A stretch of 64,000 nt of DNA from Candidatus Omnitrophota bacterium (GCA_028865345.1 JAGWKL010000009.1:7382-71381); one strand, 5' to 3'; positions 1,046-50,118 are shown, counted from the stretch's first letter. Made by a program: numbers and translations. The notes: generated by a model from the sequence alone, not told the origin.

Positions 1046-2236
1046 ATGAAAAAATATGATTTCATCATTATAGGCTCGGGCATCATCGGCTTAGGTGTGG
1101 CGCTGGCCCTCAAGGACCGTAAAGAGCAAAGCCGCATTCTGGTCATGGACAAGGAAGCGGCAGAGGCCCAACACGCTTCCGGACGCAACAGCGGCGTGTT
1201 GCATGCGGGCTTCTACTATACGGCAGACAGCCTCAAGGCCAGGTTTACCGTTGAGGGTTCGCGCGCCATGAAAGCCTATGTCAAATCCAGGGGTCTGAAG
1301 ATCAATGAATGCGGGAAATTGGTGGTGGCCCAAAACGAGCATGAGTTGGGGCAACTGGATGAACTTTTGCAAAGGGGAAAACACAACGGTTCCAATGTCA
1401 GGCTGGTGGATGAGGCCGAAGCCTGCCGGATCGAGCCTAACGTCAGGACCTTTAAGCGGGCGTTGTATTCGCCGGACACGGCAAGCATCGATCCCAAGGA
1501 GGTCTGTGCCTCGCTTAAAAATGATCTGCAAAGATCAGGCGTCGAGTTTTCATTTGACACAAAGTATTTGGGCCGCTCGTCCAATATTCTTCAAACCACC
1601 AAGGGAGATTTCGAGGCAGGCAAGATCATCAATGCTGCCGGCCTTTACGCGGACCGCGTGGCCAGGGACTTCGGTTTTGGGTTTAAATATACAATGGTCC
1701 CTTTTAAAGGGCTTTATTTGAAATACACCAGCAATAAGACCGATGTTACCACCAACATTTATCCGGTGCCGAATTTAAAAAACCCGTTTTTAGGGGTGCA
1801 TTACACCAAGACCGTGACAGGGGACATTAAGATCGGGCCTACGGCCATCCCGGCTTTTTGGCGTGAAAATTACGGGGCCGCAAGCGGCTTTTCGGCCCAA
1901 GAGATGGCGGAGGTGTTGTTTTTCGAATCCAAGTTATATCTGACCAATGCCTTTAATTTCCGTTCCCTGGCCCATGAAGAAATGCGTAAATACAACAAGG
2001 AGTATTTTATTTCCCTGGCCGCTTCCATGGTCCGGCATATCGACCCGCAAGGGTTTACGGAATGGACCAAGCCCGGCATCCGGGCGCAGCTTTTGGACAA
2101 GCAAGAGCTCAAGCTCGTCCAGGATTTTGTGGTGGAGGGCGACCACAAAAGCATCCATGTCCTTAATGCCGTGTCTCCGGCCTTTACCTGCGCCTTTCCG
2201 TTTGCCAGGTATGTCGTGGACCAATACGTTATATGA
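1046..2236 (+). CDS. lhgO: FAD-dependent L-2-hydroxyglutarate oxidase-like oxidoreductase
   Basis: The N-terminus carries the dinucleotide-binding motif YDFIIIGSGIIGLGVA. HNSGVLHAGFYYT, NECGKLVVA and the C-terminal HVLNAVSPAFT collinearly match the LhgO/YgaF family. Confidence 0.8.
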   Translation: MKKYDFIIIGSGIIGLGVALALKDRKEQSRILVMDKEAAEAQHASGRNSGVLHAGFYYTADSLKARFTVEGSRAMKAYVKSRGLKINECGKLVVAQNEHELGQLDELLQRGKHNGSNVRLVDEAEACRIEPNVRTFKRALYSPDTASIDPKEVCASLKNDLQRSGVEFSFDTKYLGRSSNILQTTKGDFEAGKIINAAGLYADRVARDFGFGFKYTMVPFKGLYLKYTSNKTDVTTNIYPVPNLKNPFLGVHYTKTVTGDIKIGPTAIPAFWRENYGAASGFSAQEMAEVLFFESKLYLTNAFNFRSLAHEEMRKYNKEYFISLAASMVRHIDPQGFTEWTKPGIRAQLLDKQELKLVQDFVVEGDHKSIHVLNAVSPAFTCAFPFARYVVDQYVI

Positions 2237-4263
2237 AATCACCTCTTAAAATAGCTTCCCGTTCGAGTCCGCTTGCCCTCGTGCAGATCGACGAGATCAT
2301 CCGTGATTTAAAGGCCCTGGGCAGGTCGGTGGATTATGAAATTCTAAAAATCCAGACCGCCGGAGACATGGACAAGACCACGCCATTGACCCAAAGCTCC
2401 GACGATTTTTTTACCGACGCCATTGACCAGGCCCTGCTGGCAGGCCGGGCAGATATCGCCGTGCACAGCGCCAAAGACCTGCCGCAACATTTGAATGAAG
2501 GCTTAAAGATTTTCGCCCTGACCAAAACTCTCGATGACAAGGACGCCTGGGCAGGCCGGGTGCATTGGAAAGACCTGCCGCCCAATCCAACGATCGGCAC
2601 CAGCAGCCTCCTGCGTCAGCAACAGTTCTTGGGGCTGCGTCCCGATGCCAGGATCGTTCAAATCCGCGGGACCATTCAGGAGCGTCTGCAATTAGTCAAC
2701 AAAGGTGAGGTGGATGGCATTATTGTGGCGGCTTGCGCCCTCAAACGCCTGGGACTGCAGAAGGAAATCAAGGATGTTTTTCCCTGGGAGGGCATGCCTT
2801 TGCAAGGCCAGCTGGCCGTGGTGGGCCGCCGCGGCGATCAGGAATTGGAACAACTATTTGGCGTGATGGATGTCCGCCGCCAATACGGCAAGGTCACGCT
2901 GGTCGGAGCAGGCCCCGGCGACCCGGAATTGATGACCGTCAAGGGACTAAAGTGCCTTGCCCAAGCGGACTGCGTATTTTACGATTATCTGCTGGATGTC
3001 TCTTTATTAAAGCATGCCCCCCAAGCCGAGCATATTTATGCGGGCAAACGCAAAGGCGAGCATTCGCTTTCCCAGGCAGACCTTTCGAGGCTGCTTAAAG
3101 AAAAAGCTTTTGCCGGCAAAAGGGTGGTGCGTCTTAAAGGGGGAGACCCTTTGGTCTTTGGCCGCGGGGCTGACGAGATCCAATACCTGCGTTCCTACCA
3201 TATCGAGGTTGATGTCATTCCGGGCATCAGTTCGGCCACCGGCATTCCTTCTTCGCTGGGCATTCCTTTGACCGCTCGCGGGATTTCTTCGTCGGTTGCC
3301 TTCCTGACCGGCCATGAAGAAGACGAGAATAAAGACCATCCCAGGCAGGTCGCTGTCCCCGAGGCGGACACCCTTGTTTTTTTCATGGGGCTGACCAAAT
3401 TAAACGTGATCGTGCAATCATTAAAAGAATCCGGCCGGCCGCTGACGACACCGGTCATGATCGTTGCCAACGGCACCAGGCCCGGGCAACAGATCGTCCA
3501 GGGTACGCTTGGGACAATAGAAGATTCGGCCCATGTCCATGGTTTAAAGCCTCCCGCGCTTATTATCGTCGGGAAAACCATTGAATTTTATAAGTCCGAC
3601 GGGAAAAAGATTTTCCTGCATTGCGGAACGCACCCTCAAAGCTACAGCCGTTTGGGCACCATTGTGCATTGGCCCATGATCGATATCAAGCCTGCGGCTT
3701 TAAGCAAGGCCCAACAACAAGCTCTGCAGCAGGCTTTTGAATCCGCGGACATCATTGTGTGTACCAGCTGGTATGCGGGAGAGAATTTTGTCAATGCGAT
3801 GAGGGCCGTTGATCCTCAGGCCGATCTTTCAGGCAAGGCTTTTGCCGTCATCGGCCGGCGCACAGCAGGCGCCTTGCAGGAACACGGCATCAAGTCCGCC
3901 GTTGTCTCCCGGGAGGAGACCGCGCAAGGACTGTTTGAAACCATGAGGCGGCATTGGGATTTGAAAGGCAAGCGCATTTTGTTTCCGCGTTCCAATTTGC
4001 CCAACCCGTTTTTAAAAGAAGCGCTGGCGGCCCAGGGGGCGCTGGTCACGGAAATAACGATTTATGAAAACACCAAACCCGCCCGGCGTGATTTGCCGTC
4101 CATGGACATCGAAGGCGTTATTTTCACCAGCCCTTCAACAGTAAGGAATTTTCTGGCGGATTATGGTAAAATACCGGACTCCTGGCAGGTCCTGGCCAAG
4201 GGGCCGGTCACTTTAAAAACATTACAGGAAGAAGGGTACCATCATGCCTCATCGTTATCGTAG
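2233..4263 (+). CDS. Tri-domain fusion of HemC-like domains 1-2 (about 215 aa), uroporphyrinogen-III C-methyltransferase CobA/SUMT, and uroporphyrinogen-III synthase HemD
   Basis: The N-terminus has IASRSSPLALVQ, ADIAVHSAKDLP and IGTSSLLRQQ, matching HemC. The middle has VTLVGAGPGDPELMTVKG and KGGDPLVFGRG, matching SUMT. The C-terminal third resembles HemD. The ATG overlaps the lhgO stop as ATGA. Confidence 0.8.
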   Translation: MKSPLKIASRSSPLALVQIDEIIRDLKALGRSVDYEILKIQTAGDMDKTTPLTQSSDDFFTDAIDQALLAGRADIAVHSAKDLPQHLNEGLKIFALTKTLDDKDAWAGRVHWKDLPPNPTIGTSSLLRQQQFLGLRPDARIVQIRGTIQERLQLVNKGEVDGIIVAACALKRLGLQKEIKDVFPWEGMPLQGQLAVVGRRGDQELEQLFGVMDVRRQYGKVTLVGAGPGDPELMTVKGLKCLAQADCVFYDYLLDVSLLKHAPQAEHIYAGKRKGEHSLSQADLSRLLKEKAFAGKRVVRLKGGDPLVFGRGADEIQYLRSYHIEVDVIPGISSATGIPSSLGIPLTARGISSSVAFLTGHEEDENKDHPRQVAVPEADTLVFFMGLTKLNVIVQSLKESGRPLTTPVMIVANGTRPGQQIVQGTLGTIEDSAHVHGLKPPALIIVGKTIEFYKSDGKKIFLHCGTHPQSYSRLGTIVHWPMIDIKPAALSKAQQQALQQAFESADIIVCTSWYAGENFVNAMRAVDPQADLSGKAFAVIGRRTAGALQEHGIKSAVVSREETAQGLFETMRRHWDLKGKRILFPRSNLPNPFLKEALAAQGALVTEITIYENTKPARRDLPSMDIEGVIFTSPSTVRNFLADYGKIPDSWQVLAKGPVTLKTLQEEGYHHASSLS

Positions 4264-5206
4264 ATTAAGGGCCTCCGCCGCCATCCGCGGGCTTGTGCGC
4301 GAAACCCACCTTTTGGCCGACGATCTGCTGCAGCCTTTTTTTGTGATCGACGGCAAAAATAAAAAAGAGCCCATCGACGCCATGCCGGGCGTTTTTCGTT
4401 ATTCCGTCGATCTATTGCTCAAGGAGATCGCCGCCTGTGTGCGCCTGGGAGCAAAAGGCGGGATACTTTTCGGCGTGTCCCGTCACAAGGACAATACCGG
4501 TAAATATGCCTATGCCGCCAACGGCCCGGTGCCTTGCGCCATTAAGGCCATCAAGAAACATTTCCCGCAATTTTTTATTGTGACCGATGTTTGCCTTTGC
4601 GCTTACATGGGCCATGGCCATTGCGGCATCGTTGAGGCCCAAAAGATCAACAATGATAAAACCCTGCCGGTGTTGGCCAGGATGGCCTTATGCCATGCCC
4701 AGGCCGGGGCCGATATGGTGGCCCCGTCGGACATGATGGATTTTCGCGTGGCTGCCATCAGGCAGGCCCTGAATAAGGAAAATTTTCAGGACGTGGGTAT
4801 ATTGTCCTACGCGGTCAAATATGCTTCGGCCTATTACGGCCCCTTCCGTGAGGCCGCGCATTCGGCGCCTGGCTTCGGCGACCGCAGGAGTTACCAGATG
4901 GATGCCGCCAACAGCCGGGAAGCTCTTAAAGAAGCCCTGCAGGATCTGGACGAAGGCGCGGACATGGTGATGGTCAAACCGGCGCTGGTTTATTTGGACA
5001 TCGTCTCCCTGCTGCGCCGGAAATTGAATGTGCCCATCGTGGCCTATAATGTGAGCGGAGAATACGCCATGGTCAAGGCCGCGGCCCAAAACGGCTGGAT
5101 CGATGAGAGATCATTGGTGTTGGAAACATTGACTTCCATCAAGCGCGCCGGGGCGGACATCATCATTTCCTACCACGCGAAGGCGGCCCTCGAATGGCTT
5201 CGATGA
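4244..5206 (+). CDS. hemB: Porphobilinogen synthase (ALA dehydratase), Zn-type
   Basis: RASAAIRGLVRETHL and the cysteine cluster CLCAYMGHGHCG mark the Zn-binding site. It continues to SYHAK at the C-terminus. Confidence 0.9.
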   Translation: MPHRYRRLRASAAIRGLVRETHLLADDLLQPFFVIDGKNKKEPIDAMPGVFRYSVDLLLKEIAACVRLGAKGGILFGVSRHKDNTGKYAYAANGPVPCAIKAIKKHFPQFFIVTDVCLCAYMGHGHCGIVEAQKINNDKTLPVLARMALCHAQAGADMVAPSDMMDFRVAAIRQALNKENFQDVGILSYAVKYASAYYGPFREAAHSAPGFGDRRSYQMDAANSREALKEALQDLDEGADMVMVKPALVYLDIVSLLRRKLNVPIVAYNVSGEYAMVKAAAQNGWIDERSLVLETLTSIKRAGADIIISYHAKAALEWLR

Positions 5207-6462
5207 ATACGGCCCAAAAAGTCATGGTGGGCGGCGTCAACAGTCCGGTGCGCGCTTTCAAGGCCGTGGGCGGAAACCCCCTGGTGATGGCCCAAGGCCG
5301 GGGCAGCAAACTTTTCGACATCAATGGCCGCAGTTACACCGATTATTGCCTTTCCTGGGGCGCATTGATCCTGGGCCACGCCCATCCTGATGTCACGGCG
5401 GCCGTATGCAAAGCGGCCCGAAAGGGCACCAGTTTCGGCACCACAACCTCGCCTGAGATCGAAATAGCCCGGTTTATCGTCAAGCATGTGCCGTCGGTGG
5501 ACATGGTGCGGTTTGTCAATTCAGGCACCGAAGCCACGATGAGCGCGGTGCGCTTAAGCAGGGGTTTTACTAAGCGCCGCAAGATCATCAAGTTCGACGG
5601 CTGTTACCACGGCCACAGCGACGATCTTTTGGCCGTGGCAGGTTCAGGGGTGGCTTTTCTGCCGGCCTCATCAAGCCAGGGAATTCCGAAAGCCCACATG
5701 CAAGACACCTTAAGTCTGCCTTTTAATGATACGCAGACCCTGCAGCATACCATTGAACGCCATCATGCGGACCTTGCCTGCGTCATCGTAGAGCCTGTGG
5801 CCGGCAATATGGGCGTCATCAATCCGCACCTTGATTTCCTTAAAACCTTACGTGCCCTGACCAAAAAATACGGCATTGTGCTTATTTTTGATGAAGTGAT
5901 GTGCGGGCTGCGTTCCGGTCTTGGCTGTGTCCAGGCCGATCTGGGGATCATTCCCGATCTTACCTGTCTGGGCAAGATCATCGGCGGCGGGTTCCCGGTC
6001 GGGGCGTATGGCGGAAGAAGGGACATCATGAAGTGCCTTTCGCCTTTGGGCGGCGTTTATCAGGCCGGCACCTTTTCAGGTACGCCTGTTGTCATGCAGG
6101 CAGGCCTGGCCGTTTTAAAGAATTTGACCCCTAAGATGTATAAAGATCTTAACACCATCTGTGATGATTTTGTCGGGCGGACAAACCTTGTTTTGAGGCG
6201 GGCTAAGGTAAAAGCCCATCTGGTCAATTATAAAAGCATGATCAGCATCCGTTTTTCGGATAATCCTGTTGATAATTATGCCCAAGCCAGGCAGGCTTCG
6301 TCCGATAAACTTTATGCGAAATTGTTCCATCATTTATTGCGCCGCGGGATCTATCTTCCCCCGGCGGATTTGGAATCTTTCTTTGTTTCCAGCCGCCACT
6401 CGCTGAAGGACATCAATGCTTTGGGCCGGGCCCTTCAGGACTTTTTTACCGGCCGGCGTTAA
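5194..6462 (+). CDS. hemL: Glutamate-1-semialdehyde 2,1-aminomutase
   Basis: GGVNSPVRAF is present, the class-III aminotransferase fold is suggested, and the PLP lysine context is GKIIGGG. It overlaps the hemB 3' end by 13 nt. Confidence 0.9.
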   Translation: MASMNTAQKVMVGGVNSPVRAFKAVGGNPLVMAQGRGSKLFDINGRSYTDYCLSWGALILGHAHPDVTAAVCKAARKGTSFGTTTSPEIEIARFIVKHVPSVDMVRFVNSGTEATMSAVRLSRGFTKRRKIIKFDGCYHGHSDDLLAVAGSGVAFLPASSSQGIPKAHMQDTLSLPFNDTQTLQHTIERHHADLACVIVEPVAGNMGVINPHLDFLKTLRALTKKYGIVLIFDEVMCGLRSGLGCVQADLGIIPDLTCLGKIIGGGFPVGAYGGRRDIMKCLSPLGGVYQAGTFSGTPVVMQAGLAVLKNLTPKMYKDLNTICDDFVGRTNLVLRRAKVKAHLVNYKSMISIRFSDNPVDNYAQARQASSDKLYAKLFHHLLRRGIYLPPADLESFFVSSRHSLKDINALGRALQDFFTGRR

Positions 6463-6780: not shown

Positions 6781-7122
6781 ATGTTCAATCCCATGAGAAA
6801 TAATGAGCAGCGCAGCCAACCGCGTGTCACCCTGGAGTTGCCCGTTACCGTCAGCATCGGATCGCAGCTGAGCGTCAAAGGCCAGCTTAAAGACCTTGCC
6901 GTCAACAGCGCCTTCATCAAGATCAAAAACAGCATTTATTTGAATGTTAACGATGAGATAGGGCTGGCCATTTCAGATTTGCCGGATGATCCTGATGCGC
7001 AGATCCAGGTGACCGCCCGGATCTCCCGTATCGTGCCGGGGGAGGGTTTTGCCGTTTATTTTACCGGAGTAGATGAAGAATCCTTAAAGTACATCAAGAA
7101 ATTCCTTCCCAAAGATCAATAA
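6781..7122 (+). CDS. PilZ domain protein (c-di-GMP binding candidate)
   Basis: An RxxxR motif (QRSQPRV) is followed by a D/NxSxxG-like segment and a beta-barrel-like C-terminus, in a single 113-aa domain. Confidence 0.6.
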   Translation: MFNPMRNNEQRSQPRVTLELPVTVSIGSQLSVKGQLKDLAVNSAFIKIKNSIYLNVNDEIGLAISDLPDDPDAQIQVTARISRIVPGEGFAVYFTGVDEESLKYIKKFLPKDQ

Positions 7123-7143: not shown

Positions 7144-8376
7144 ATGCACAAACGCATTTCAATCATCGGCGGGGGAATATCGGGCCTGGCTGTTTTGCAT
7201 TATTTGAAACAGCGCTTCGGGGACGATGCCGATATCTCTCTTTTTGAGAAAGAAGCGTCCGCCGGCGGCACAGTCCGCAGCCTGAAAAAAGATTCCTTCC
7301 TCTTTGAATGGGGGCCTGACGGGTTTTTGGACAATCAACCCGTTACGTTGGAGCTTATCGCGCAACTGGGTCTGGAAGACCGGCTCATCGGGGCCAGGCC
7401 TGAGGCCGCCACGCGTTATATTCAAATCGAGGGAAGATTATATCCTGTCCCCTTGGACCCTGTTGGTTTGATGCGTTCGCGGTTATTGTCCTCCCATGAT
7501 AAATGGTCCTTGATCAAAGGCCTGTTCAAAAGAAATATTTCCACCGACGTCTCCATCTATGATTATGTCAGCCGGCGCTTTTCTTGCGGGATCGCCGAGG
7601 CCCTGGTCGATCCTTTCATCAGCGGGATTTATGCCGGGGACATCCGGCGGCTGCATATGTCCGCTTTTCCTAAATTCAAAGGCCGGAAGTTCAAAAAGAG
7701 CCGCATGTGTTCTTTTAAAGGGGGCATGGGAGAGATCATCGAAGCCCTGGCTGACCGTTATAAAAATTGTATTCAAACAAGCTCGCCCGTAGCATCAATC
7801 CCGCCCGATATGGACATTACGGTTGTGGCGACACCTGCTTACGCCGCGGCCAGGATCGTTAAAAACGTCAATCCTGACCTGGCCCAAATCCTTGGCCTTT
7901 TCCCCTATGCGCCGGTGGCGGTGGCGGGCCTGGCCTTTAAACGCGATTCTTTCAAAAAAATTCCTGACGGCTTCGGATACCTGGTCCCTTCCAAGGAGCA
8001 TAAAGAGATTTTGGGAGTGCTCATCGAAAGCAATGTATATTCCCATCGGGCGCCGGAGGGCCATGTGATGCTGCGTGTCATTCTGGGAGGCATGCATCAT
8101 CCCCAGACCATCAACGACGCGCAAGAGAGGGTCCTTGTCAAAGCAGTCAAAGAGATCGATTCTGTTTATGGGCTGGTTTCCAATCCCATTGAAGGTTTTG
8201 TCAAATTTTGGCCCCAGGCCATCCCGCAATACGAAATAAATTATCCGCAAAACAGGCGCTCCATTGCCCTGGAATGCGCCAAAACGCCGGGACTGCATTT
8301 ATGCGCCAATTATTTGGACGGTATTTCCTTCAACGACTGCATTGCCGCTGCCAGGTCACTGGCGCTTGCTATATAG
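7144..8376 (+). CDS. hemY: HemY-family FAD-dependent protoporphyrinogen/coproporphyrinogen III oxidase
   Basis: The N-terminus is ISIIGGGISGLA. It also has SGIYAGD, WPQAIPQY and a C-terminal LDGISFNDC, all collinear with B. subtilis HemY. Confidence 0.75.
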   Translation: MHKRISIIGGGISGLAVLHYLKQRFGDDADISLFEKEASAGGTVRSLKKDSFLFEWGPDGFLDNQPVTLELIAQLGLEDRLIGARPEAATRYIQIEGRLYPVPLDPVGLMRSRLLSSHDKWSLIKGLFKRNISTDVSIYDYVSRRFSCGIAEALVDPFISGIYAGDIRRLHMSAFPKFKGRKFKKSRMCSFKGGMGEIIEALADRYKNCIQTSSPVASIPPDMDITVVATPAYAAARIVKNVNPDLAQILGLFPYAPVAVAGLAFKRDSFKKIPDGFGYLVPSKEHKEILGVLIESNVYSHRAPEGHVMLRVILGGMHHPQTINDAQERVLVKAVKEIDSVYGLVSNPIEGFVKFWPQAIPQYEINYPQNRRSIALECAKTPGLHLCANYLDGISFNDCIAAARSLALAI

Positions 8377-11123: not shown

Positions 11124-11162
11124 AATTTGCGTGGTTTGGGATATTTTGTTAATATTCCTTTT

Positions 11163-12227
11163 ATGTTAGTTGTTGGTGTAAGCCACAAAACAGCGCCTAT
11201 TGGGGTCCGGGAAAAGTTTTTCTTAAATCCTTCCCAGCAGGACTTGCTCCTGAGTGAACTGAAAAATCATCCCCAGATCACGGAAGGTTTTGTCCTTTCG
11301 ACCTGCAACCGGACCGAGGTCTATCTGAAATGCCTAAATGAGGATGTCGGCCCTTCCTTTGTTGTGGCGCTTATCGCCAAGGTCAAAAAGATCAATTTTG
11401 ATTTTGATACAGGCCTTTATGTTTATTCCTATGAAGGGCCCGGGGCCCTGGACCATCTTTTAAGGGTGGCCTGCGGCCTGGAGTCCATGGTGTTGGGAGA
11501 AAAGCAGATCCTGGGGCAGGTCAAGCTGGCGGTGGAGCGTTCACATGGGGCAGGCACCCTGTCGCGTTATTTCAATATCCTGACCAATGTGGCCATCCGC
11601 GCTGGCAAAAAGGCCCAAAACGAAACCCAAATCAGCCACGGCGGATCTTCCGTTTCCTGGGCGGCCGTGAAAATGGCTGAAAAAGCCCTTGGCGATCTTA
11701 AGGGAAAATCCGTGCTGGTCATCGGCGCCGGAAAAATGGGAGGGATCGCCCTCGAACATCTTCAGGGGCTGGGTGTCAAAAAAATATTTTTAATGAACCG
11801 TACAGGCGAAAAAGCGGAGGCCCTGGCCGCCAAATACAACGGCATCCCGTCTTCTTTTTGGAACATCAGGGAGATTTTAAGCGAAGCGGACGTTTGCTTT
11901 TGCGCCGTGGGCGCCCCGCATTATATTCTCGACAAAGAAAAGATCGCCGATATCGCATCACAGCGCGGCGGGCGATTGCTCGTCTTGATAGACATTTCCA
12001 TGCCGCGCAACATCGACCCTGAAGTCGGGAAGCTTGCGGATGTCCATTTAAGCGCCATTGATGATCTGCAGGTTGTTTTGGACAACAACATGAAAAAACG
12101 CAGCCAGGCCGTGCACCAGGTTGAGGATATTATCCGCCAAAAAATCACCGAGTTCAAAGTCAAGATCGCCAAATTGGAACATACGCCCGGCACCGATTTT
12201 TATGAGCATCGGCGAATGCCCGGCTAG
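11163..12227 (+). CDS. hemA: Glutamyl-tRNA reductase
   Basis: VVGVSHKTAPIGVREK and STCNRTEVY contain the catalytic Cys. An NADP-binding GAGKMG is present. The start was chosen at the internal ATG. Confidence 0.85.
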   Translation: MLVVGVSHKTAPIGVREKFFLNPSQQDLLLSELKNHPQITEGFVLSTCNRTEVYLKCLNEDVGPSFVVALIAKVKKINFDFDTGLYVYSYEGPGALDHLLRVACGLESMVLGEKQILGQVKLAVERSHGAGTLSRYFNILTNVAIRAGKKAQNETQISHGGSSVSWAAVKMAEKALGDLKGKSVLVIGAGKMGGIALEHLQGLGVKKIFLMNRTGEKAEALAAKYNGIPSSFWNIREILSEADVCFCAVGAPHYILDKEKIADIASQRGGRLLVLIDISMPRNIDPEVGKLADVHLSAIDDLQVVLDNNMKKRSQAVHQVEDIIRQKITEFKVKIAKLEHTPGTDFYEHRRMPG

Positions 12228-12983: not shown

Positions 12984-13748
12984 ATGTTCCCCACATTTAA
13001 TTTAAGCGACTATATCATGCATCACATCGTCAATTCCCATGAGTGGCATATCCCGTTCTTTGGCGCTGTGGGGCTTGGCGGTTTTTTGACCATGCACGCC
13101 TTGATGATGTTCATCGGCACGGCCCTCGTACTGATTTTGTTCCTGGTGCTTTACCGCAAAGACGAACGCGTGCCCGCAGGCCTTACCAATTGCCTGGAGA
13201 TGTTTGTGGTTTTTATCCGCGATGAAGTCGCCATCCCGAGCCTCGGGGAAAAAGACGGTCTGTTGTTCACCCCGATGCTATGCACGCTTTTTTTCTTTAT
13301 TTTGGTCCTTAATCTCCTTGGACTTATCCCGCTTTTCGAACCTGCTACGGCCAACATCAATGTGACAGGGCCGCTGGCCTATCTTATCCTGGTTTTGATG
13401 GTTGTCGGCACTCTTGTACGCAACGGTCCCAAAGGCATATGGCATGCCATGATCCCCTCGACCTTGCCCAAGCTTCTTATCCCTTTTTTTTTGGTCACGG
13501 AGGTCGTGAGCATATTAGTGCGCACCGTCGCCCTGGCGATACGGCTTTTCGCGAACATGATAGCCGGCCACATGGTGATTTTGTCTTTTCTGGGACTGGT
13601 GGTCCTGTTCGGCTGGTGGGCCATGCTGGCCCCGGTGGTTGCCGTATTTTTTTACTGCCTGGACATTTTTGTGGCCTTTTTGCAGGCTTATATATTTATT
13701 TTGCTGTCTGCCGTATTTATCGGGCAAATGTACCATCCGGAACATTGA
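12984..13748 (+). CDS. atpB: F0F1 ATP synthase subunit a
   Basis: The sequence LAIRLFANMIAGH contains the essential Arg. Confidence 0.9.
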   Translation: MFPTFNLSDYIMHHIVNSHEWHIPFFGAVGLGGFLTMHALMMFIGTALVLILFLVLYRKDERVPAGLTNCLEMFVVFIRDEVAIPSLGEKDGLLFTPMLCTLFFFILVLNLLGLIPLFEPATANINVTGPLAYLILVLMVVGTLVRNGPKGIWHAMIPSTLPKLLIPFFLVTEVVSILVRTVALAIRLFANMIAGHMVILSFLGLVVLFGWWAMLAPVVAVFFYCLDIFVAFLQAYIFILLSAVFIGQMYHPEH

Positions 13749-13853
13749 AACGGGGTTTAAACACAGCATAAGAAAGGTCGCTTCTCTGAATAAAATTAAG
13801 GTAGCGGCACAAACCGGGAATTAAATTTATTAACCTTAAGGGAGGAAGTTTTT

Positions 13854-14084
13854 ATGAATCCACAATTATTGCATTTAGGGGAGATTTCCGCAGGGGCGGG
13901 TCTCGGGCTTTCCGCCGTCGGTGCGGGTATCGGGGTGGGACTTATCTTTGCGGCAGCCATCCAGGCCATCGCCCGCCAGCCGGAATTGACCAATAAATTG
14001 CAGACCCTGATGTTCATCGGCGCAGCCATTGTCGAAGGGGTGGCGTTTTTCTGCGCCATTATTTGTTTTTTAGCCATCAAATAA
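13854..14084 (+). CDS. atpE: ATP synthase subunit c
   Basis: It is a 76-aa hairpin proteolipid with a conserved carboxylate in AAIVEGVAFF. Confidence 0.9.
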   Translation: MNPQLLHLGEISAGAGLGLSAVGAGIGVGLIFAAAIQAIARQPELTNKLQTLMFIGAAIVEGVAFFCAIICFLAIK

Positions 14085-14093
14085 AGGTCCATT

Positions 14094-14636
14094 ATGTCCG
14101 ATACCACCGCGCATACACAAGCCCCTTCGGGCGGCCACCAGCAGACGGGGATCCTGACGCCGGATGCGACCCTGTTGACCTTGACCTGGGTGACCTTTTT
14201 TGTGCTGATGTTCATCCTGCATAAATTCGCCTGGAAACCCATACTTGCCGGCCTTAAAAAACGCGAAGATTACATCCGCAAGTCCGTTGAAGATGCGGAC
14301 AAGATCACCCGGCAGCTGGCCGAGATTGAACAAGACAAGACCAAGATACTTAACGAGGCCAAGGATAAGGCCAATGCCATCATCGAACAGTCCCGCAAGA
14401 TGAGCCATGAGATGGCCATGCATGTTGAGGCCGGCGCCAAAAAGAACGCCGAGGAGATCATCAACAGCGCCCGTCAGGAACTGGCCGGGGAGCGCGAGCG
14501 CGTCCTGGTCGCTTTGAAAAAAGAGAGCGTCCAGGCGGCCGTGTCTTTGTCTGAAAAGATCCTCAAGGAAAATCTCGATACCGAAAAGAACCGGAAATTG
14601 ATCAACGACGCCATTAAGGACATTGAACCGTCATGA
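14094..14636 (+). CDS. atpF: ATP synthase subunit b
   Basis: It has a single N-terminal TM followed by a long charged coiled coil. Its operon position supports the call. Confidence 0.8.
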   Translation: MSDTTAHTQAPSGGHQQTGILTPDATLLTLTWVTFFVLMFILHKFAWKPILAGLKKREDYIRKSVEDADKITRQLAEIEQDKTKILNEAKDKANAIIEQSRKMSHEMAMHVEAGAKKNAEEIINSARQELAGERERVLVALKKESVQAAVSLSEKILKENLDTEKNRKLINDAIKDIEPS

Positions 14637-15154
14637 GCCGGACTGCTGACCGTTATGCCAAAGCCATTTTTGAATTGGCCCGGGAACAAAACATCCTTGA
14701 AGCTGTGCAGGAATCCATGACTGAGATAAGAACGCTTATCATCACCTTGGAGGGTTTCCGGAGGTTTTTGGGCAATCCCTTGCTTTCTTACGAGGAACGC
14801 CGCGCTGTCCTGACCAGCCTCTTCGAGGGAAAAATCCCCGAGTTGGCCTTAAGGGCCCTTTTATTCATCACGTATAAGAACCGTTTGCCCATCTTGAGGG
14901 ACATCATCGAATCTTTTGACAGCTTATACCTGGCCGGCACCGGCACGATCAGGGCCTATATCAGGACGGCATTGCCCATTACGGACCAGGACAAAGCCTT
15001 GATCGACGGGCAGCTGCATGATAAATTCCGCCAACGGATGCTGACCCGCTGGTCCGTGGACGGCTCGCTCATAGGGGGCTTTAGGATTTTTATTCAAGGA
15101 GTCATTTACGATTATAGTTTTAAGAACCAGTTGAACCATTTCTTGCAACTATAG
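14633..15154 (+). CDS. atpH: ATP synthase subunit delta (OSCP)
   Basis: The N-terminus ADRYAKAIFELAREQN matches OSCP. It is placed between atpF and atpA. Confidence 0.8.
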   Translation: MSRTADRYAKAIFELAREQNILEAVQESMTEIRTLIITLEGFRRFLGNPLLSYEERRAVLTSLFEGKIPELALRALLFITYKNRLPILRDIIESFDSLYLAGTGTIRAYIRTALPITDQDKALIDGQLHDKFRQRMLTRWSVDGSLIGGFRIFIQGVIYDYSFKNQLNHFLQL

Positions 15155-15208
15155 GAACAAAGCGCAGCATAAAGTAAACCTTACAACAACCCCTAACAGA
15201 GAGTTCAT

Positions 15209-16723
15209 ATGCCTCAACAATTGAATCCCGATGAAATATCCGCCATCCTCAAACAGCAATTAAGCCATTTTACAGCCAAGGTGGAGACCTTTGAGGTGGG
15301 CACCGTGCTTAATGTCGGTGACGGCATCGCGCGTGTCTACGGCCTTTCCAATGTCATGGCCGGTGAGATCGTGCAATTTACCAACGGCATCAAGGGCCTG
15401 GCGCTTAATCTGGAAGAAAGCAATGTGGGTGTGGCCATTTTCGGATCGGACGCCGATATTAAGGAAGGCGATGAGGTCAGGCGCACGGGCAAAATTGCCT
15501 CCGTGCCTGCGGGGGACGGTCTTTTGGGCCGCATTGTGGATGCTCTGGGGGCTGCGGTTGACGGCAAACCGGCTTTCACTTCCAATGTCCTGCAGCCCAT
15601 TGAAGTCAAGGCTCCCGGCATCATCGACCGCAAGAACGTGCATGAGCCATTGCAGACCGGCATCAAGGTCATTGATGCCTTGACGCCCATCGGCCGCGGC
15701 CAGCGCGAATTGATCATCGGGGACCGTAAAACGGGCAAGACCACTCTTGCCGTCGATACCATCATCAATCAAAAGGGCAAGGGCGTGTATTGCTTTTACG
15801 TGGCCATCGGCCAGAAAAGATCGACGGTGGTCCAGGTCTTTGAGACGTTGCGCAAATTCGGGGCCATGGACTACACGACCATCGTGGCAGCCACGGCTTC
15901 CGACCCCGCACCCATGCAATTTTTAGCGCCATATGCCGGCTGCGCCATGGCAGAGTATTACCGGGACAACGGTAAACATGCGTTGATCATCTACGACGAT
16001 TTGACCAAACACGCCCAGTCCTACCGCCAGCTTTCGCTCTTGTTGCGGCGTCCGCCGGGCCGTGAAGCTTATCCCGGCGATATTTTCTATCTTCACAGCC
16101 GCCTCCTGGAGCGCGCGGCCAAATTGTCCGACAAAAAAGGGGCAGGTTCCCTGACGGCCCTGCCGGTCATCGAGACCCAGGCCGGGGACGTGTCCGCCTA
16201 TATCCCCACCAATGTCATTTCCATTACCGACGGCCAGATTTTCCTGGAAGGCGACCTTTTCAATGCCGGCCAGCGCCCGGCCATCAATGCAGGGCTTTCG
16301 GTGTCACGTGTGGGCGGTGATGCCCAGGTCAAGGCCATGAAGCAGACCGCGGGGTCCCTGCGCCTGGAACTGGCCCAGTACCGGGAGCTCGCGGCATTTT
16401 CGCAATTTGCCTCAGACTTAGACCAGGCCACCCGCAAACAGCTCGACCGCGGCAGGAGATTGATGGAGATCATCAAGCAGGGCATCCATGTGCCGTTGCC
16501 GGTCGTTAAACAAGTCGCCATCATTTTTGCCGGGACAAACGGATTTCTGGACGATGTCCCGGCCAACAGGGTGTGCGATTTTGAAGAATTCCTCTCTGCC
16601 CAAATAGACACCCAATACCATGACTTTGTGCAGTTGTTCAATAAAACCATGACCATGACCGATGAAATCAAAGCGGCATTAAAGAAATTATTGGAAGAAG
16701 TTAAATCGTCATTTAAAATATGA
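15209..16723 (+). CDS. atpA: ATP synthase subunit alpha
   Basis: It carries a Walker A motif GDRKTGKT and alpha-specific regions. Confidence 0.95.
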
Positions 16724-17604
16724 TCGGCATCAGAGAATTCAATAAAAAAATAGCCTCGCTGAAAAACACCCGCAAGATGACCAAGACGATGAAGATGGTC
16801 TCTGCCAGTAAATTCAAGCGGGCGCACAAGGCACAAGAGAGCGCGCAGGATTACGCCCAGAAACTGGGCAAATTAATGGAAAGCCTCTCCGGCGCAGGCC
16901 CCACCAACCATCCCTTGCTCAAAACCAAAAGGGCGGTCACCCGCAGTTTGATCGTTTTATTTACCTCCGACAAAGGCTTATGCGGGGGGTTCAATAATAA
17001 TTTGATCCGAAAAACCCGGCACTGGATCTCGGACAATCCCTATAAGTACACCGTTATCGGGATGAGCTTTTGCGGCCGGCGCGGCTATATGGCTTTCCGC
17101 CGCAGTGCTAAAATCAGCAAATATTATGAGAACATCACGGCCAAGCCGGAATTTGAAGGGGCCTTGAAGGTGGCGCAGGAAATTACGGATTCCTTTATCA
17201 ACAGCGAGTATGAAGAGATTTATCTGGCTTATAACCGTTTCGATGGGGCCATGACCCAGACCCCGGTGATCGAAAAGATCCTGCCATTGGATGCGTCTGT
17301 TTTCAGCAAATCCGAGGCCCCCCTGAAATCCAAAGGGCCGCGATCGATGGATTATACGTATGAACCCGAAGAAAAGGAGATCCTGTATTTTTTGATACCG
17401 AAATTCCTGAACTTTAAGATTTTTTATACGTTACTGGAAAATGCGGCCGGGGAACACGGGGCGCGCATGACCGCCATGGACAAGGCTTCCCAGAATACCG
17501 GCGAACTCATCGACCGCTATACGCTCTTGCGCAACCGCGCCAGGCAGGCGGCGATCACGAATGAATTGATCGAGATCATTTCAGGAGCGGAAGCTCTCAA
17601 ATAA
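16720..17604 (+). CDS. atpG: ATP synthase subunit gamma
   Basis: A gamma-family N-terminus and C-terminal helix ([15 protein letters not shown]) are present. Confidence 0.9.
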
Positions 17605-19035
<1,431 letters not shown>

Positions 19036-21086: not shown

Positions 21087-22832
21087 ATGGGCGGTTCCCC
21101 CAATAGCGCTTCACATCACGAATCTTTTATCCGCAAGTATATTTTTTCCACAGACCATAAGGTCATTGCCATTCAATACCTGTTTTTAAGCCTGTTTTTT
21201 CTCCTTTTTGGCTTTTTGCTGATGCTTTTGATGCGCTGGCAATTGGCCTATCCCGGGCAACCCGTACCTTTTAATTTTATAGGAAAGCTGTTCGGCCAAA
21301 ACAGTATGCCCGGCGGTGTCATGCTCCCTGAATTTTATAACCAGTTGGGGGCCATGCACGGGACGATCATGGTGTTTTTGGGGGTTGTCCCGCTGGGCTT
21401 CGCTGTTTTTGGAAATTATTTGATCCCTTTGCAGATCGGCGCCAGGGACATGGCCTTTCCACGGTTGAACATGTTCAGCTACTGGTCGTTTTTTGCAGGC
21501 GGCATGTTGATGCTCTCAAGCTTTTTTTGGCCGGGCGGCCCGGCCAGCAACGGCTGGACATCTTATGCCCCCTTGTCCGACATTGCGCATGACGGGCAGA
21601 CCATCTGGCTTTTCAGCATGTTTATCATCATCGTGTCCTCGCTGCTTTCTTCCTTAAATTTTATTGTGACTATCTTTAACCTCCGGGCCCCGGGCATGAC
21701 CTTCGAACGCCTGCCGTTCTTTATCTGGGCCCAACTGGTCACCTCCTTTTTACTGCTGTTAGCTTTCCCGCCGCTGGAAGGGGCCGCGTTTTTGCAATTG
21801 TGCGACCGCCTGCTGGGGACAAGCTTTTTTCTGCCCAGCGGCCTGTTTGTCAACGGCCAGGTCTACAATGTCAGCGGGGGAGGCAATGCGCTGCTTTGGC
21901 AGCATTTGTTCTGGTTTCTGGGCCATCCCGAGGTTTATGTCCTTATCCTGCCGGCCTTAGGCATCGTCACGGAAATCATCGCCAACAACACCAGAAAAAA
22001 TATCAGCGGCTTTAACATGATGCGCGTTTCCGTCATCTTTTTGGGCTTTTTGTCATTTGTCGTCTGGTCGCATCACATGTACTTGACCGGCATGGGCACC
22101 GATATCACAGCCTTTTTCCAATTGACCACCATGATCATCTCGATCCCATCCATCATCATCGTTTCTGCTTTGTTCATCACCTTGTGGGGGGGATCCATCC
22201 GTTTTACCACTCCGATGATCTTTGCCCTTGCCTTTTTACCCATGTTCGGTATCGGCGGGTTGACCGGTTTGCCCCTGGGCCTGGCCGCCACCGACATCCC
22301 TTTGCATGACACCTACTATGTCATCGGGCACTTTCATTATGTCGTGGCCCCGGGCGTTATTTTAGGGCTTTTTGCCGGGATTTATTATTGGTTCCCCAAG
22401 GCCACGGGCCGAAAAATGAATGACCTCCTTGGCCATCTGCATTTTTGGCCTACCTTGATCACCATGAATTTCGTTTTTTTCCCCATGCTCATTCAAGGCC
22501 TGATGGGGGTCAACCGCAGGTTGTACGACGGGGGGGAGACTTATTTATTCATGCATAAAGTGCTTTATTGGAATGTGGTCATCTCCTGGGCGGCCTGGGT
22601 CCTGGCCCTGGCCCAGCTTCCGTTTATCTTCAACTTTTTTTACAGCATGTTCAAAGGCGAAAAAGTCCATTCGGACAATCCCTGGGAGTCCACCACGCTG
22701 GAATGGGCCACACCCACACCGCCTCCGCACGGAAATTTCACCAAACAGCTGACCGTGTATCGCGATCCCTACAGCTACAGCCTGGAGGGAGCGCCTAAAG
22801 ATTACAGCCCACAATATCAGGAGGAGATTTAA
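21087..22832 (+). CDS. coxA: Heme-copper cytochrome c oxidase subunit I
   Basis: It is a 581-aa 12+ TM protein with His ligands in HHMYLTG and GHFHYV. Confidence 0.9.
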   Translation: MGGSPNSASHHESFIRKYIFSTDHKVIAIQYLFLSLFFLLFGFLLMLLMRWQLAYPGQPVPFNFIGKLFGQNSMPGGVMLPEFYNQLGAMHGTIMVFLGVVPLGFAVFGNYLIPLQIGARDMAFPRLNMFSYWSFFAGGMLMLSSFFWPGGPASNGWTSYAPLSDIAHDGQTIWLFSMFIIIVSSLLSSLNFIVTIFNLRAPGMTFERLPFFIWAQLVTSFLLLLAFPPLEGAAFLQLCDRLLGTSFFLPSGLFVNGQVYNVSGGGNALLWQHLFWFLGHPEVYVLILPALGIVTEIIANNTRKNISGFNMMRVSVIFLGFLSFVVWSHHMYLTGMGTDITAFFQLTTMIISIPSIIIVSALFITLWGGSIRFTTPMIFALAFLPMFGIGGLTGLPLGLAATDIPLHDTYYVIGHFHYVVAPGVILGLFAGIYYWFPKATGRKMNDLLGHLHFWPTLITMNFVFFPMLIQGLMGVNRRLYDGGETYLFMHKVLYWNVVISWAAWVLALAQLPFIFNFFYSMFKGEKVHSDNPWESTTLEWATPTPPPHGNFTKQLTVYRDPYSYSLEGAPKDYSPQYQEEI

Positions 22833-22833
22833 T

Positions 22834-23445
22834 TTGGAAGCCGCACATACCGAAGAATTTATCCCTTACATCGTTGAACCCCGCGAAGACACCGGCCTTT
22901 ATAACGCAAAATTCGGCATCTGGCTTTTTTTGGCCTCAGAAGTGATGCTCTTCGGGTCTTTGTTTTCAGCTTACATCCTGCTGCGCGCAGGGTCTTTCAA
23001 CTGGCCGGTGCAGTCCGACGTCCAGAACGTGCCTATCGGCGCCATCAACAGCATTGTCCTTTTGTCATCCAGCATATTTTTTATACGCGCCTGGGTCCAC
23101 TTGAAAGCTGATAATATCGCCAAATATAAACAATTCATGCGTTTGGTGCTTTTGTTTGCTTTTATATTCCTGACGCTTAAAGGTTTTGAGTATTACCAGC
23201 ATTTCAGCCATCATGAATACCCCAAAACAAATGTTTTTTTCGGCCTTTATTATTTAATGACAGGCCTTCATGCCTTGCATATTATCGGCGGAATTATTGT
23301 CAACAGCTTTTATCTTGGGCCCGGCATGCGCCTTAGGTCCACCAACAAACAATGGTTCATCAACCGCCTGGAAGTCGCCGGCCTTTATTGGCATTTTGTG
23401 GACTTAGTCTGGATATTTTTGTTCTCGACCCTGTACCTGCTCTAA
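22834..23445 (+). CDS. coxC: Cytochrome c oxidase subunit III
   Basis: It is a 5-7 TM protein with a conserved C-terminal YWHFVDLVWIFLF. Confidence 0.85.
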   Translation: MEAAHTEEFIPYIVEPREDTGLYNAKFGIWLFLASEVMLFGSLFSAYILLRAGSFNWPVQSDVQNVPIGAINSIVLLSSSIFFIRAWVHLKADNIAKYKQFMRLVLLFAFIFLTLKGFEYYQHFSHHEYPKTNVFFGLYYLMTGLHALHIIGGIIVNSFYLGPGMRLRSTNKQWFINRLEVAGLYWHFVDLVWIFLFSTLYLL

Positions 23446-23449
23446 ATCT

Positions 23450-23761
23450 ATGGAAGACCATTCGAATTCCGCAGACCTTAAAAGAGATATCCTGATCTAT
23501 GGCGCCATCGTTGTCCTGACGGTCCTGATTGTGCTTATCAGCCGTTTTCATCTGGGCGTATTGGGAATTTTTATCATTGTGCCCATCGCCTGCACGGAAG
23601 CCGGGGTCCTGGCTTATTTTTTCATGCACCTTAGCGCCAAACAAAAAACTCTTCATATGCTTTTGTTGTTGACCATTGTCGTCTTTTTGTCGTTATTATT
23701 TTGGCCCGTGTGGGACATTCTTTATTCACCGAGAACGCCCAGCGCCTATACCACGAATTGA
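23450..23761 (+). CDS. coxD: Cytochrome c oxidase subunit IV (bacterial small subunit)
   Basis: It is a 103-aa 3-TM protein placed after subunit III. Confidence 0.6.
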   Translation: MEDHSNSADLKRDILIYGAIVVLTVLIVLISRFHLGVLGIFIIVPIACTEAGVLAYFFMHLSAKQKTLHMLLLLTIVVFLSLLFWPVWDILYSPRTPSAYTTN

Positions 23762-23763
23762 TT

Positions 23764-24513
23764 ATGGACAGCCTTTTACAAAAACTCCTTCCCATGCAGC
23801 CTTTAGCGTCGGTGGAAGGCCGTGCCAATGATACCCTGATGTATCTCATTCATGGGCTTATTCTTGTCCTTTTTGTGGGTTGGGCCGTTTATTTTATTAC
23901 GGTCCTGATCAAATTCCGCCAGAGAAAAGGCGTTAAGGCCCGTGAAGTCCCTGTCGCGCATAAAATTTCAACGTCCGTTGAATGGACCGTGGCCTTTCTT
24001 GAACTTTTGCTTCTCTTTGCCTTCTCCATCCCTTTTTGGGCTGTGCACCAGGCGTCGATCCCTAAAGGCAAGAACATCCTGACGATCAAAGTGGTGGCCC
24101 AGCAATTCGCCTGGAACATCCATTATGCCGGCCCTGACGGGAGATTCGGCCATACCTCTGCCCGTTTCCTTAATGATAACCCCCTGGGGCTTGATCCCAG
24201 CGATCCTGACGGTAAAGACGACATCACCACCATGAACGAGATCTATCTGCCGGTCAATAAGCCTGTCATTTTCGACCTGACCAGCAAGGACGTCATCCAC
24301 AGTTTTGGCATACCTGCGATGCGTGTCAAACAAGATGTCATTCCCGGCATGGTCACCCATGTCTGGTTTACCCCGGATAAGATAGGCCAATATGAAGTGG
24401 CGTGTTCCCAGTTGTGCGGCCCGGGGCATTACCGCATGAGGGGCATTATCCATGTTGTGAGCCAGGCCGATTTTGACCAATGGATACAGCAAAACAAAGG
24501 AATCCATGACTGA
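23764..24513 (+). CDS. coxB: Cytochrome c oxidase subunit II (CuA) with no fused cytochrome c domain
   Basis: It has two N-terminal TMs and the CuA site H...CSQLCGPGHYRM. The start was taken at the ATG right after the coxD stop. Confidence 0.85.
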   Translation: MDSLLQKLLPMQPLASVEGRANDTLMYLIHGLILVLFVGWAVYFITVLIKFRQRKGVKAREVPVAHKISTSVEWTVAFLELLLLFAFSIPFWAVHQASIPKGKNILTIKVVAQQFAWNIHYAGPDGRFGHTSARFLNDNPLGLDPSDPDGKDDITTMNEIYLPVNKPVIFDLTSKDVIHSFGIPAMRVKQDVIPGMVTHVWFTPDKIGQYEVACSQLCGPGHYRMRGIIHVVSQADFDQWIQQNKGIHD

Positions 24514-25045
24514 TCATCATCCAACCCCAAGACCGGAAGAACCTGAGGATATCCAAAAGCGTAATTTTATAAAAACCCTGACTGTCGCGATTTTGGGATT
24601 TATAACGTTTTTCTTAACGCAGCCTTTTGTCACCTACCTGTTTCCGGTGGCTAAGGAGGGGACGAAGGAAAAATTTATCAAGGTCCCTAATTTCCCGGCC
24701 ATACCTCTCGAAACGCCTACAAAAATGACCTTCGAATACATGGATGTGCAGGCCTACATCACCAGCAATGTTATTTATGACGTTTGGGTGGTCAAGCATG
24801 CCGCTGATAAAGCCTCCGTCTATAACCCCCTGTGCACGCATTTAAATTGCCGTTACACCTGGGTGGGAAGCCACCATGAATTTATGTGCCCCTGTCACGG
24901 AAGCATATTTAACATCAACGGCAAGGTCGTTGGGGGCCCCGCCCCCAGGCCTTTGGACACCCTTCCTTATAAAATTGAAGGGGGGGAGCTTTATGTCCAT
25001 TGGGAATTGTTTAAAGCCGGCATCCCGCAGAAACTTGAGATTTAA
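24506..25045 (+). CDS. Rieske 2Fe-2S protein of a bc-type complex
   Basis: Rieske box I is CTHLNC and box II is CPCHGS. The ATG overlaps the coxB stop as ATGACTGA. Confidence 0.85.
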   Translation: MTDHHPTPRPEEPEDIQKRNFIKTLTVAILGFITFFLTQPFVTYLFPVAKEGTKEKFIKVPNFPAIPLETPTKMTFEYMDVQAYITSNVIYDVWVVKHAADKASVYNPLCTHLNCRYTWVGSHHEFMCPCHGSIFNINGKVVGGPAPRPLDTLPYKIEGGELYVHWELFKAGIPQKLEI

Positions 25046-25076
25046 TGCGTCAAGGCGAACAAAGTAAAGGGCCGTC

Positions 25077-27374: not shown

Positions 27375-27375
27375 T

Positions 27376-46319: not shown

Positions 46320-46322
46320 CGC

Positions 46323-46997: not shown

Positions 46998-47085
46998 ATA
47001 TCATTTCCCTGTATAACAACTTAACATAACATATATTATAGGAAGAACTTTTAAAGAGAACTAAGGGGCTGGAATTGATCCGTTT

Positions 47086-48300: not shown

Positions 48301-48336
48301 AAAACACCCTTAAATACAAAATACATCTATTTCAGC

Positions 48337-48654: not shown

Positions 48655-48659
48655 CGCTT

Positions 48660-48983: not shown

Positions 48984-48995
48984 GCCCTACCTATA

Positions 48996-49015
48996 AAGTA
49001 ACATATAAGTTACTT
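48996..49015. promoter_or_regulatory. Perfect palindrome AAGTAAC-N6-GTTACTT immediately upstream of higB; likely TA operator
   Basis: The 7-bp arms are exact reverse complements, 12 nt upstream of the toxin start. Confidence 0.5.
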
Positions 49016-50100: not shown

Positions 50101-50118
50101 TTAATTTTAAAAGTGCGC

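Follow-up and report, generated by a model that had tools for sequence, protein, structure and literature searches.

Hydroxymethylbilane synthase (HMBS; porphobilinogen deaminase, HemC) is described as an enzyme of three domains, which carries its dipyrromethane cofactor on a conserved cysteine of domain 3 (PMC7959689, PMC13564367). In the Escherichia coli enzyme, domain 3 comprises residues 222-313 and is preceded by a hinge of residues 218-221 (PMC3945110). Fusions with other enzymes of the early tetrapyrrole pathway have been described as well, and for the HmbS-UroS fusion of Leptospira interrogans a dual activity was reported (Guegan et al. 2003, as described in bioRxiv 10.1101/2021.02.09.429727). 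Here, we analyzed a stretch of 64,000 nucleotides from a Candidatus Omnitrophota bacterium (GCA_028865345.1, JAGWKL010000009.1:7382-71381; in the following "the window", which always refers to the whole stretch), which encodes a protein of 676 amino acids (aa) consisting of domains 1 and 2 of HemC (HemC12), without domain 3, followed by CobA, a uroporphyrinogen-III C-methyltransferase (SUMT), and HemD, a uroporphyrinogen-III synthase (UROS). CobA-HemD and HemC-HemD fusions are already known, and the triple fusion is a variant of these. It is the missing tether domain, across a whole clade of HemC proteins, that appears surprising and undiscussed in the literature; no paper on a HemC without domain 3 or on a HemC-CobA-HemD fusion was found in a search that omitted most subscription journals and is therefore weak evidence.

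We consider it probable, at roughly 60%, that the protein represents a trifunctional early-tetrapyrrole enzyme, that its aa 1-215 are the HMBS of the organism and that the chain is built on a non-covalent primer rather than on a Cys-tethered dipyrromethane.

Results

The fusion protein consists of HemC domains 1 and 2, CobA and HemD

The protein is encoded by an open reading frame (ORF) of 2031 nt with an ATG start and a TAG stop codon (Table 1). Pfam assigned PF01379 (Porphobil_deam) to aa 5-206 (E 2.9e-52, profile positions 1-206 of 207), PF00590 (TP_methylase) to aa 220-429 (E 2.4e-51) and PF02602 (HEM4) to aa 476-670 (E 8.6e-37; 126.9 bits vs a gathering threshold of 27.5), and gave no match of PF03900 (Porphobil_deamC) anywhere in the 676 aa. 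According to the NCBIfam models, TIGR00212 (hemC) covers just model positions 1-216 of 293, and aa 1-215 alone score 190.8 bits, which is above the curated NCBI cut-off of 164. The CobA part reached 263.1 bits with TIGR01469 (cobA; cut-off 185) and 275.5 bits with NF004790 (cut-off 198), and its translation contains two candidate S-adenosylmethionine (SAM) motifs, VGAGPGDPELMT and LKGGDPLVFGRG, which are invariant across the family and which we take to be the glycine-rich SAM-binding motifs of the SUMT family. Several NCBIfam HemD models match aa 464-670 without reaching their equivalog cut-offs (best NF004593, 94.7 bits vs 275); given how strongly HemD families diverge, this speaks only weakly against a UROS function.

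An AlphaFold2 model of the fusion, which was built on 62 relatives, has a mean predicted local distance difference test score (pLDDT) of 87, with values of about 85-96 over aa 1-215. The N-terminal part of the model superposes on the E. coli HemC structures 1PDA, 1AH5 and 1YPN with 1.8-2.1 Å over 215-222 columns, or roughly two thirds of the target (TM-score per target 0.63-0.66), and the middle part was matched by Foldseek to the SUMT/NirE structures 1S4D, 2YBO and 1VA0 (TM-score per target 0.76-0.86). In a phmmer search against the PDB, aa 4-212 align to residues 5-219 of E. coli HemC, where the match ends. The junction is very tight, as the final helix of HemC extends to about aa 217 and CobA has its first strand from aa 220 onwards; the fusion partner therefore starts exactly at the position of domain 3.

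These results bear out the architecture proposed in a first-pass annotation, which a model had made from the sequence alone: HemC domains 1-2, CobA and HemD in one protein, a HemC-like stretch of about 215 aa with the catalytic Asp context (the motif ADIAVHSAKDLP is present, with D82 corresponding to E. coli D84), and the absence of domain 3 together with its cofactor Cys. The window contains a single HemC-like region and hence, as had been stated, no second hemC.

No domain 3 is encoded in the window or in related loci

The column of E. coli C242 is Cys in all 119 canonical HemCs of our alignment, and this region is absent from the fusion. A hidden Markov model (HMM) of domain 3 was built from the same 119 proteins, all of which it recovers. 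With this HMM, neither the window, translated in six frames (best E 0.12, 9.8 bits), nor five related loci treated likewise gave a match, and there was none in the 276 domain-3-less proteins or within 5 kb of 80 chlamydial-type genes. Altogether, 85 related loci with flanks of 5-10 kb were inspected, and neither these nor the window contain a domain-3 ORF that could be the second half of an adjoining split gene; the lack of a match argues against a locally split gene. In a few representatives, HemC12 is followed by 60-130 residues without an assignment, but a divergent domain 3 concealed there was rejected, since the segments differ from one another and their best E value with the domain-3 HMM is 0.079, compared to 1e-28 for the control.

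Substrate-site residues are retained and contacts to domain 3 are replaced

The residues of the active site were mapped with Table 2 of a substrate-analogue study of human HMBS (PMC7959689) on a MAFFT alignment of 265 sequences. A pairwise HMMER alignment differs by 1-2 positions around PLQGQLAV, and the MAFFT mapping was chosen because Q and G are invariant in both groups. The window protein keeps R10, S12, Q18, F60, S79, K81, D82, S124, S125, R128, R145, R151, A166, R172, Q191 and G192, which represent the entire substrate site as well as pyrrole sites 1 and 2; in E. coli numbering, R11, S13, Q19, S81, K83, R132, R149, R155, R176 and Q198/G199 are all present. Apart from R131, each residue of these sites is shared by 116-119 of the 119 close relatives, and 140 or more of the 150 sequences in the wider alignment have it as well. 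Where a close relative lacks one, the alignment has a gap there, except for a single substitution at R176 and another at G199.

The position of R131 itself (human R149), which in E. coli binds the acetate of cofactor ring c1, i.e. the ring tethered to the cysteine, is occupied by Arg in 117 of 118 canonical HemCs, in 70 of 145 domain-3-less proteins and in none of the 119 close relatives (see Table 1 for the residues found instead). An engineered R131L mutant of the E. coli enzyme does not bind the cofactor and is inactive (PMC3945110). Further residues that are near-invariant in canonical HemC are replaced across the clade, namely R101 and E102 in the hinge contacting domain 3, and T154, E204, G173 and K59/G60 (active-site loop). 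Judged from the alignment, the replacements are a coherent remodelling and not a random truncation, and the loss of residues that contact domain 3 speaks against supply of this domain in trans.

HemC proteins without domain 3 form a large clade

The fusion, which had been treated as a one-off in the first-pass annotation, turned out to be one architecture within a large domain-3-less HemC clade that includes the HemC of Chlamydiota. An exhaustive phmmer search with aa 1-218 against 1.84 billion representatives yielded 279 matches below 1e-30, the best 150 of which were sorted by architecture with local HMMs and Pfam. About 60 of these best 150 are HemC12-CobA-HemD proteins (635-714 aa), about 40 are HemC12-HemD fusions (401-551 aa), about 25 are stand-alone HemC12 proteins (211-239 aa), 11 are HemC12-CobA proteins, several of them fragments (272-491 aa), and 8 belong to the HemA-HemC12 and SirC-HemA-HemC12 types (370-726 aa); a single protein is a canonical HemC with PF03900 (P0243, 302 aa). 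The clade comprises at least 145 representatives at 50% identity, and its named members among the 150 belong to Omnitrophota, Elusimicrobiota and Planctomycetota. One protein of 352 aa (P0163) combines HemC12 with a C-terminal CxxxxxR segment (FICIENSCRSQ), which resembles low-molecular-weight phosphatase/ArsC, i.e. a partner from outside the tetrapyrrole pathway.

Clustered at 90% identity, the HemC12-CobA-HemD proteins form more than 120 clusters, with identities reaching down to 53%; PF03900 never occurs in them, and every named cluster is Candidatus Omnitrophota. Triple fusions are annotated just as "uroporphyrinogen-III C-methyltransferase" or "methyltransferase/synthase". Owing to product names such as the former or "uroporphyrinogen-III synthase", name-based reconstructions could score hemC as missing in Omnitrophota.

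Chlamydiota have the stand-alone HemC12 as their HemC. At least 587 stretches that encode this form were detected in a scan of the GTDB species genomes; their sources include Parachlamydiaceae, Simkaniaceae (among them a complete genome), Waddliaceae and Rhabdochlamydiaceae. A few records labelled Verrucomicrobia, Acidobacteria or Bacteroidetes might reflect mis-binning or mis-labelling of metagenome-assembled genomes of Chlamydiota, or a wider distribution. The chlamydial short forms match NF002202 end to end and pass the TIGR00212 cut-off. In a neighbour-joining tree of 265 HemC12 regions, a single split separates 119 canonical from 146 domain-3-less sequences, which would fit a loss of domain 3 that happened once, in a single clade. 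Most likely, Chlamydiota as well as many Omnitrophota, Elusimicrobiota and Planctomycetota use the domain-3-less form as their normal HemC.

HemC12 occupies the hemC position of hem operons

The last 20 nt of the fusion ORF are shared with the start of hemB, and the order fusion-hemB-hemL of the window is kept in the Omnitrophota locus L001 (on a 1.34-Mb contig), in L002 and in L086-L088. The latter three read hemA-[HemC12-CobA-HemD]-hemB-hemL-sirC, and a siroheme-type sulfite/nitrite reductase is encoded in the vicinity. An Elusimicrobiota locus (L005) has the order cbiX-[hemA-hemC12]-[cobA-hemD]-hemB-hemL, and a chlamydia-like locus (L003) the order rnc-radA-hemC12-hemD, in which hemC12 and hemD overlap by 4 nt. 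Among the 80 chlamydial-type loci, hemD is the next gene in 52 and is fused in 20, so that the two are found together in 72 of 80. It follows from these conserved orders that the module sits in the classical hemC slot, which it does in hem operons of four phyla. HemC12 is fused, lineage by lineage, to whichever gene adjoins it up- or downstream.

Table 1 Features of the fusion gene and of its surroundings in the window.
Feature	Position (nt)	Strand	Evidence or conservation
HemC(domains 1-2)-CobA-HemD fusion, whole ORF	2233..4263	+	Pfam and NCBIfam
HemC12 module, aa 1-215, porphobilinogen deaminase domains 1+2, without domain 3	2233..2877	+	PF01379, structure match
Codon of the catalytic Asp, D82 (E. 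coli D84)	2476..2478	+	Conserved as Asp: 119/119 (close family), 148/150 (wider clade)
Codon of L127, position of E. coli R131	2611..2613	+	Leu/Ile/Val in 119/119 of the close family
Codon of C168, position of E. coli A172, cleft floor; candidate non-essential tether	2734..2736	+	Cys in 110/119 of the close family
CobA/SUMT domain, aa 219-452	2887..3588	+	TIGR01469, NF004790, Foldseek
HemD/UROS domain, aa 464-670	3622..4242	+	PF02602; NF004593 below cut-off
hemB, porphobilinogen synthase	4244..5206	+	PF00490, E 1.6e-143; NF006762, 478 bits
hemL, glutamate-1-semialdehyde aminomutase	5194..6462	+	TIGR00713, 533 bits (cut-off 527)
HemY-type proto-/coproporphyrinogen oxidase	7144..8376	+	TIGR00562, 204.6 bits (cut-off 97.85)
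hemA, glutamyl-tRNA reductase, short, without dimerisation domain	11127..12227	+	TIGR01035, 351 bits, positions 2-340 of 416
Respiratory cluster	21087-29270	+	cox1, cox3, cox2, Rieske, cytochrome b-c fusion, CtaA, CtaB

Other features of the window

The first-pass annotation had listed hemA, hemB, hemL and a HemY-type oxidase in the window, all of which are found by Pfam and NCBIfam, and had called the combination of SUMT with a HemY-type oxidase unusual. We find no support for the latter view. The routes to heme and to siroheme/B12 normally branch at uroporphyrinogen III, so that SUMT next to a HemY-type oxidase is ordinary, and sirC and a sulfite/nitrite reductase accompany the fusion in the related operon described above. 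The respiratory cluster encodes a cytochrome b of 765 aa, which is fused to two c-type cytochrome domains, as well as the heme A synthase CtaA and the heme O synthase CtaB; since the window thus encodes a heme-copper oxidase, cytochromes b and c, CtaA and CtaB, the organism needs protoheme. No hemE, hemH, hemQ or ahb gene was found among the scanned window ORFs of at least 180 aa.

HemA, with 366 aa, consists of GlutR_N and Shikimate_DH alone according to Pfam, and L086 (310 aa) and the HemA-HemC12 fusions have a similarly short HemA; a truncated HemA seems to accompany the truncated HemC in the same lineages. The HemY-type oxidase is short as well (410 aa), is matched by TIGR00562 in two stretches and could be a protoporphyrinogen or a coproporphyrinogen oxidase. 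Within the heme cluster, a PilZ-domain protein of 113 aa is encoded between hemL and this oxidase (6781-7122, + strand), which could link c-di-GMP signalling to the cluster. Upstream of the fusion, an FAD enzyme resembling L-2-hydroxyglutarate oxidase (1046-2236, + strand; NF008726, 333.6 bits vs a cut-off of 299) ends in an ATGA overlap of its stop codon with the start codon of the fusion, suggesting that the two genes may be co-transcribed. This linkage is not conserved, as the upstream gene in L001 and L002 encodes a patatin/cNMP-binding protein.

Further away, an ATP synthase operon is located at 12984-19035. At 32397-33805 (+ strand), MsrB (SelR) and MsrA (PMSR) ORFs overlap by about 100 nt in different frames, which could be explained by long upstream extensions of the ORFs or by a frameshifted msrBA fusion. 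The region 46000-51000 has a GC content of 0.41-0.45, compared to about 0.50-0.55 elsewhere in the window, and may be foreign or mobile DNA; a LAGLIDADG-like ORF lies at 47086-48300 (- strand), and ORFs without a Pfam match lie at 44733-46319 and 49168-50100.

Discussion

From the retained site residues and the operon position we infer that HemC12 is probably a working hydroxymethylbilane synthase and that the fusion protein would take porphobilinogen to uroporphyrinogen III and then to precorrin-2. In such a scheme, the HemC12 module would assemble the tetrapyrrole chain from porphobilinogen and its product would pass to the fused UROS domain, giving rise to uroporphyrinogen III. The fused SUMT would methylate part of this, yielding precorrin-2 for siroheme or for cofactors related to it, and the remainder would be converted into protoheme for the oxidase and the cytochromes encoded nearby. 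More tentatively, chain assembly might start from a primer that the conserved pyrrole sites hold non-covalently, and not from the canonical Cys-tethered dipyrromethane; this is the least certain step of the scheme. That the chain is built without the canonical tether appears most likely because the domain-3 Cys is absent, the Arg binding ring c1 has changed to Leu and some members of the clade are Cys-free.

Several points weigh against this interpretation. No enzymatic data for any member of the clade were found in the literature, and an untethered mechanism is without precedent, since both the E. coli apo-enzyme without cofactor and the R131L mutant are inactive (PMC3945110). Our view comprised 64 kb of this genome and up to 22 kb per related genome, and a canonical hemC might be located elsewhere in Omnitrophota. 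C168 is conserved to 92% in the close family, which would be compatible with a relocated tether. The neighbour-joining tree carries no bootstrap support, the canonical sample is not taxonomically balanced, the canonical control set consists of relatives of one protein plus E. coli HemC, and of the E. coli sequence used for numbering, residues 5-219 were checked against the PDB alignment.

A wider claim, namely that the entire clade, including the HemC of all Chlamydiota, represents an HMBS without any covalent dipyrromethane, which uses a non-covalent primer and hands its product over directly to UROS, is doubtful at present. The tetrapyrrole would then be assembled, possibly via an intermediate of the aminomethylbilane type, and passed to an adjacent or fused UROS.

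We rank the competing explanations in the order Cys168 tether, accessory module with a canonical hemC elsewhere, carrier in trans, and decay. The first, which is unlikely although it survives best, assumes a working HMBS with its dipyrromethane covalently bound to Cys168 of domain 2, for which the loss of the R131 equivalent would make room. Cys168 is the only well-conserved cysteine of the HemC part, and its position is Ala in 118 of 118 canonical HemCs, none of which has Cys, and Cys in 78 of 145 domain-3-less proteins. Cys168 and Arg127 are anticorrelated (66 sequences with Cys/non-Arg, 57 with non-Cys/Arg, 14 with both and 13 with neither), and in molecular dynamics simulations of the E. 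coli enzyme, A172 and G173 contact the growing polypyrrole chain and the cofactor turn shifts towards domain 2 (PMC3945110). However, the state of position 168 changes about six times on the tree, with the main gain at the base of the triple-fusion clade, so that the covariation mostly reflects one event, and the putative ancestral domain-3-less state is Ala168/Arg127 without a conserved Cys. Furthermore, one third of the HemC12 columns are conserved at least as well as C168, and nine of the 119 close relatives carry Ser, Ala, Ile or Val there; two of these nine are Cys-free in the entire HemC part, which also applies to seven representatives and three GTDB loci. With relatives, representatives and GTDB loci lacking a Cys at this position, C168 is not an obligatory tether, but it is a possible one for this subfamily. 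As a general substitute for the domain-3 Cys it was rejected, being absent in 67 of the 145 clade members and in the nine close relatives and having mostly been gained once. Two cysteines outside the HemC part do not look like tethers either: C247, with a conservation of 96%, belongs to a hydrophobic strand of CobA (ADCVFYD), and C464 is located in the linker and just 67% conserved.

Somewhat less likely still is one of the explanations offered by the first-pass annotation, according to which a complete three-domain HemC is encoded elsewhere and aa 1-215 merely bind porphobilinogen or hydroxymethylbilane as a scaffold, channelling or regulating the flux to HemD and CobA. The limitation of our view to 64 kb of the genome and the inactivity of E. 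coli HemC without its cofactor (PMC3945110) speak for this possibility. Nevertheless, the catalytic Asp, which would not be needed for mere binding, is kept almost throughout (Table 1), HemC12 takes the place of hemC in the hem operons of four phyla, and none of the named proteins among the 120 nearest canonical HemCs comes from Omnitrophota. The stand-alone short forms are, moreover, named hydroxymethylbilane synthase under the NCBI rules, and to our knowledge the short gene is the sole hemC in complete Chlamydia genomes.

The other earlier suggestion, a novel split arrangement, fares worse. In this case, domain 3 or another small Cys-bearing carrier would dock onto the HemC12 cleft in trans, which is formally conceivable for a gene in distant genome regions outside our view, and the start of the fusion partners exactly where domain 3 would begin might be seen in its favor. 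We regard it as improbable, since no domain-3-like ORF is present in the window or in the 85 loci with their flanks, since R101 and E102 of the domain-3 hinge as well as T154 and E204, all invariant in canonical proteins, are replaced, and since R131 as the holder of the tethered ring is lost in the close family. Finally, a decaying, non-functional HemC relic in organisms that import heme or its precursors, as might be suspected from the host dependence of many Omnitrophota and all Chlamydiota and because whole-domain loss often marks decay, is very improbable given the strong purifying selection on active-site residues in hundreds of sequences, the confidently predicted fold of aa 1-215 and the intact hemA, hemL, hemB and hemY alongside.

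Whole phyla, including the pathogen-containing Chlamydiota, apparently have as their only recognisable HemC a protein without domain 3 and its Cys, the catalytic site of which is under strict selection. If the domain-3-less proteins are active, the tether would not be essential to the chemistry, which would bear on chain-length counting and on product release and would set the mechanism of the chlamydial enzyme apart from that of the human one. If the untethered reading is true, this would represent a second catalytic mode for a textbook enzyme with a cofactor described as universal.

Comparison with known systems

Compared to canonical HMBS, i.e. E. coli HemC (1PDA) and the human enzyme, the fusion protein shares the fold of domains 1-2, the catalytic Asp, the Arg, Lys, Ser and Gln residues of the substrate site and of pyrrole sites 1 and 2, and the position in the hem operon. 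It differs from it by the absence of domain 3 and of the cofactor Cys, by Leu in place of R131, and by the replacement of R101, E102, T154, E204, G173, K59 and G60.

The short HemC of Chlamydiota is covered by a hydroxymethylbilane synthase model of 241 positions (NF002202/PRK01066) and falls into the same domain-3-less clade of the neighbour-joining tree. The window module matches positions 18-231 of this model and has the same C-terminal boundary, but with 194.9 bits it remains below the cut-off of 251, as do environmental chlamydial sequences (188-245 bits). In contrast to the window protein, the chlamydial forms are stand-alone or fused to HemD, and mostly have Ala168/Arg127.

With the bifunctional CobA-HemD (SUMT-UROS) proteins, an example of which (468 aa) adjoins HemA-HemC12 in the Elusimicrobiota locus, the window protein has the succession of CobA and HemD in one chain in common, whereas the additional upstream HemC12 would add up to three predicted activities. 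The Leptospira fusion, as far as it is described in the citing paper, also joins HemC to HemD and, unlike the window protein, is described there without a SUMT domain. The siroheme synthase CysG, finally, is likewise multifunctional and contains the same SUMT domain (NF007922 matches aa 212-450 of the window protein, in addition to Foldseek matches), but it combines SUMT with a downstream dehydrogenase/chelatase, whereas the window protein combines it with two upstream enzymes of the pathway.

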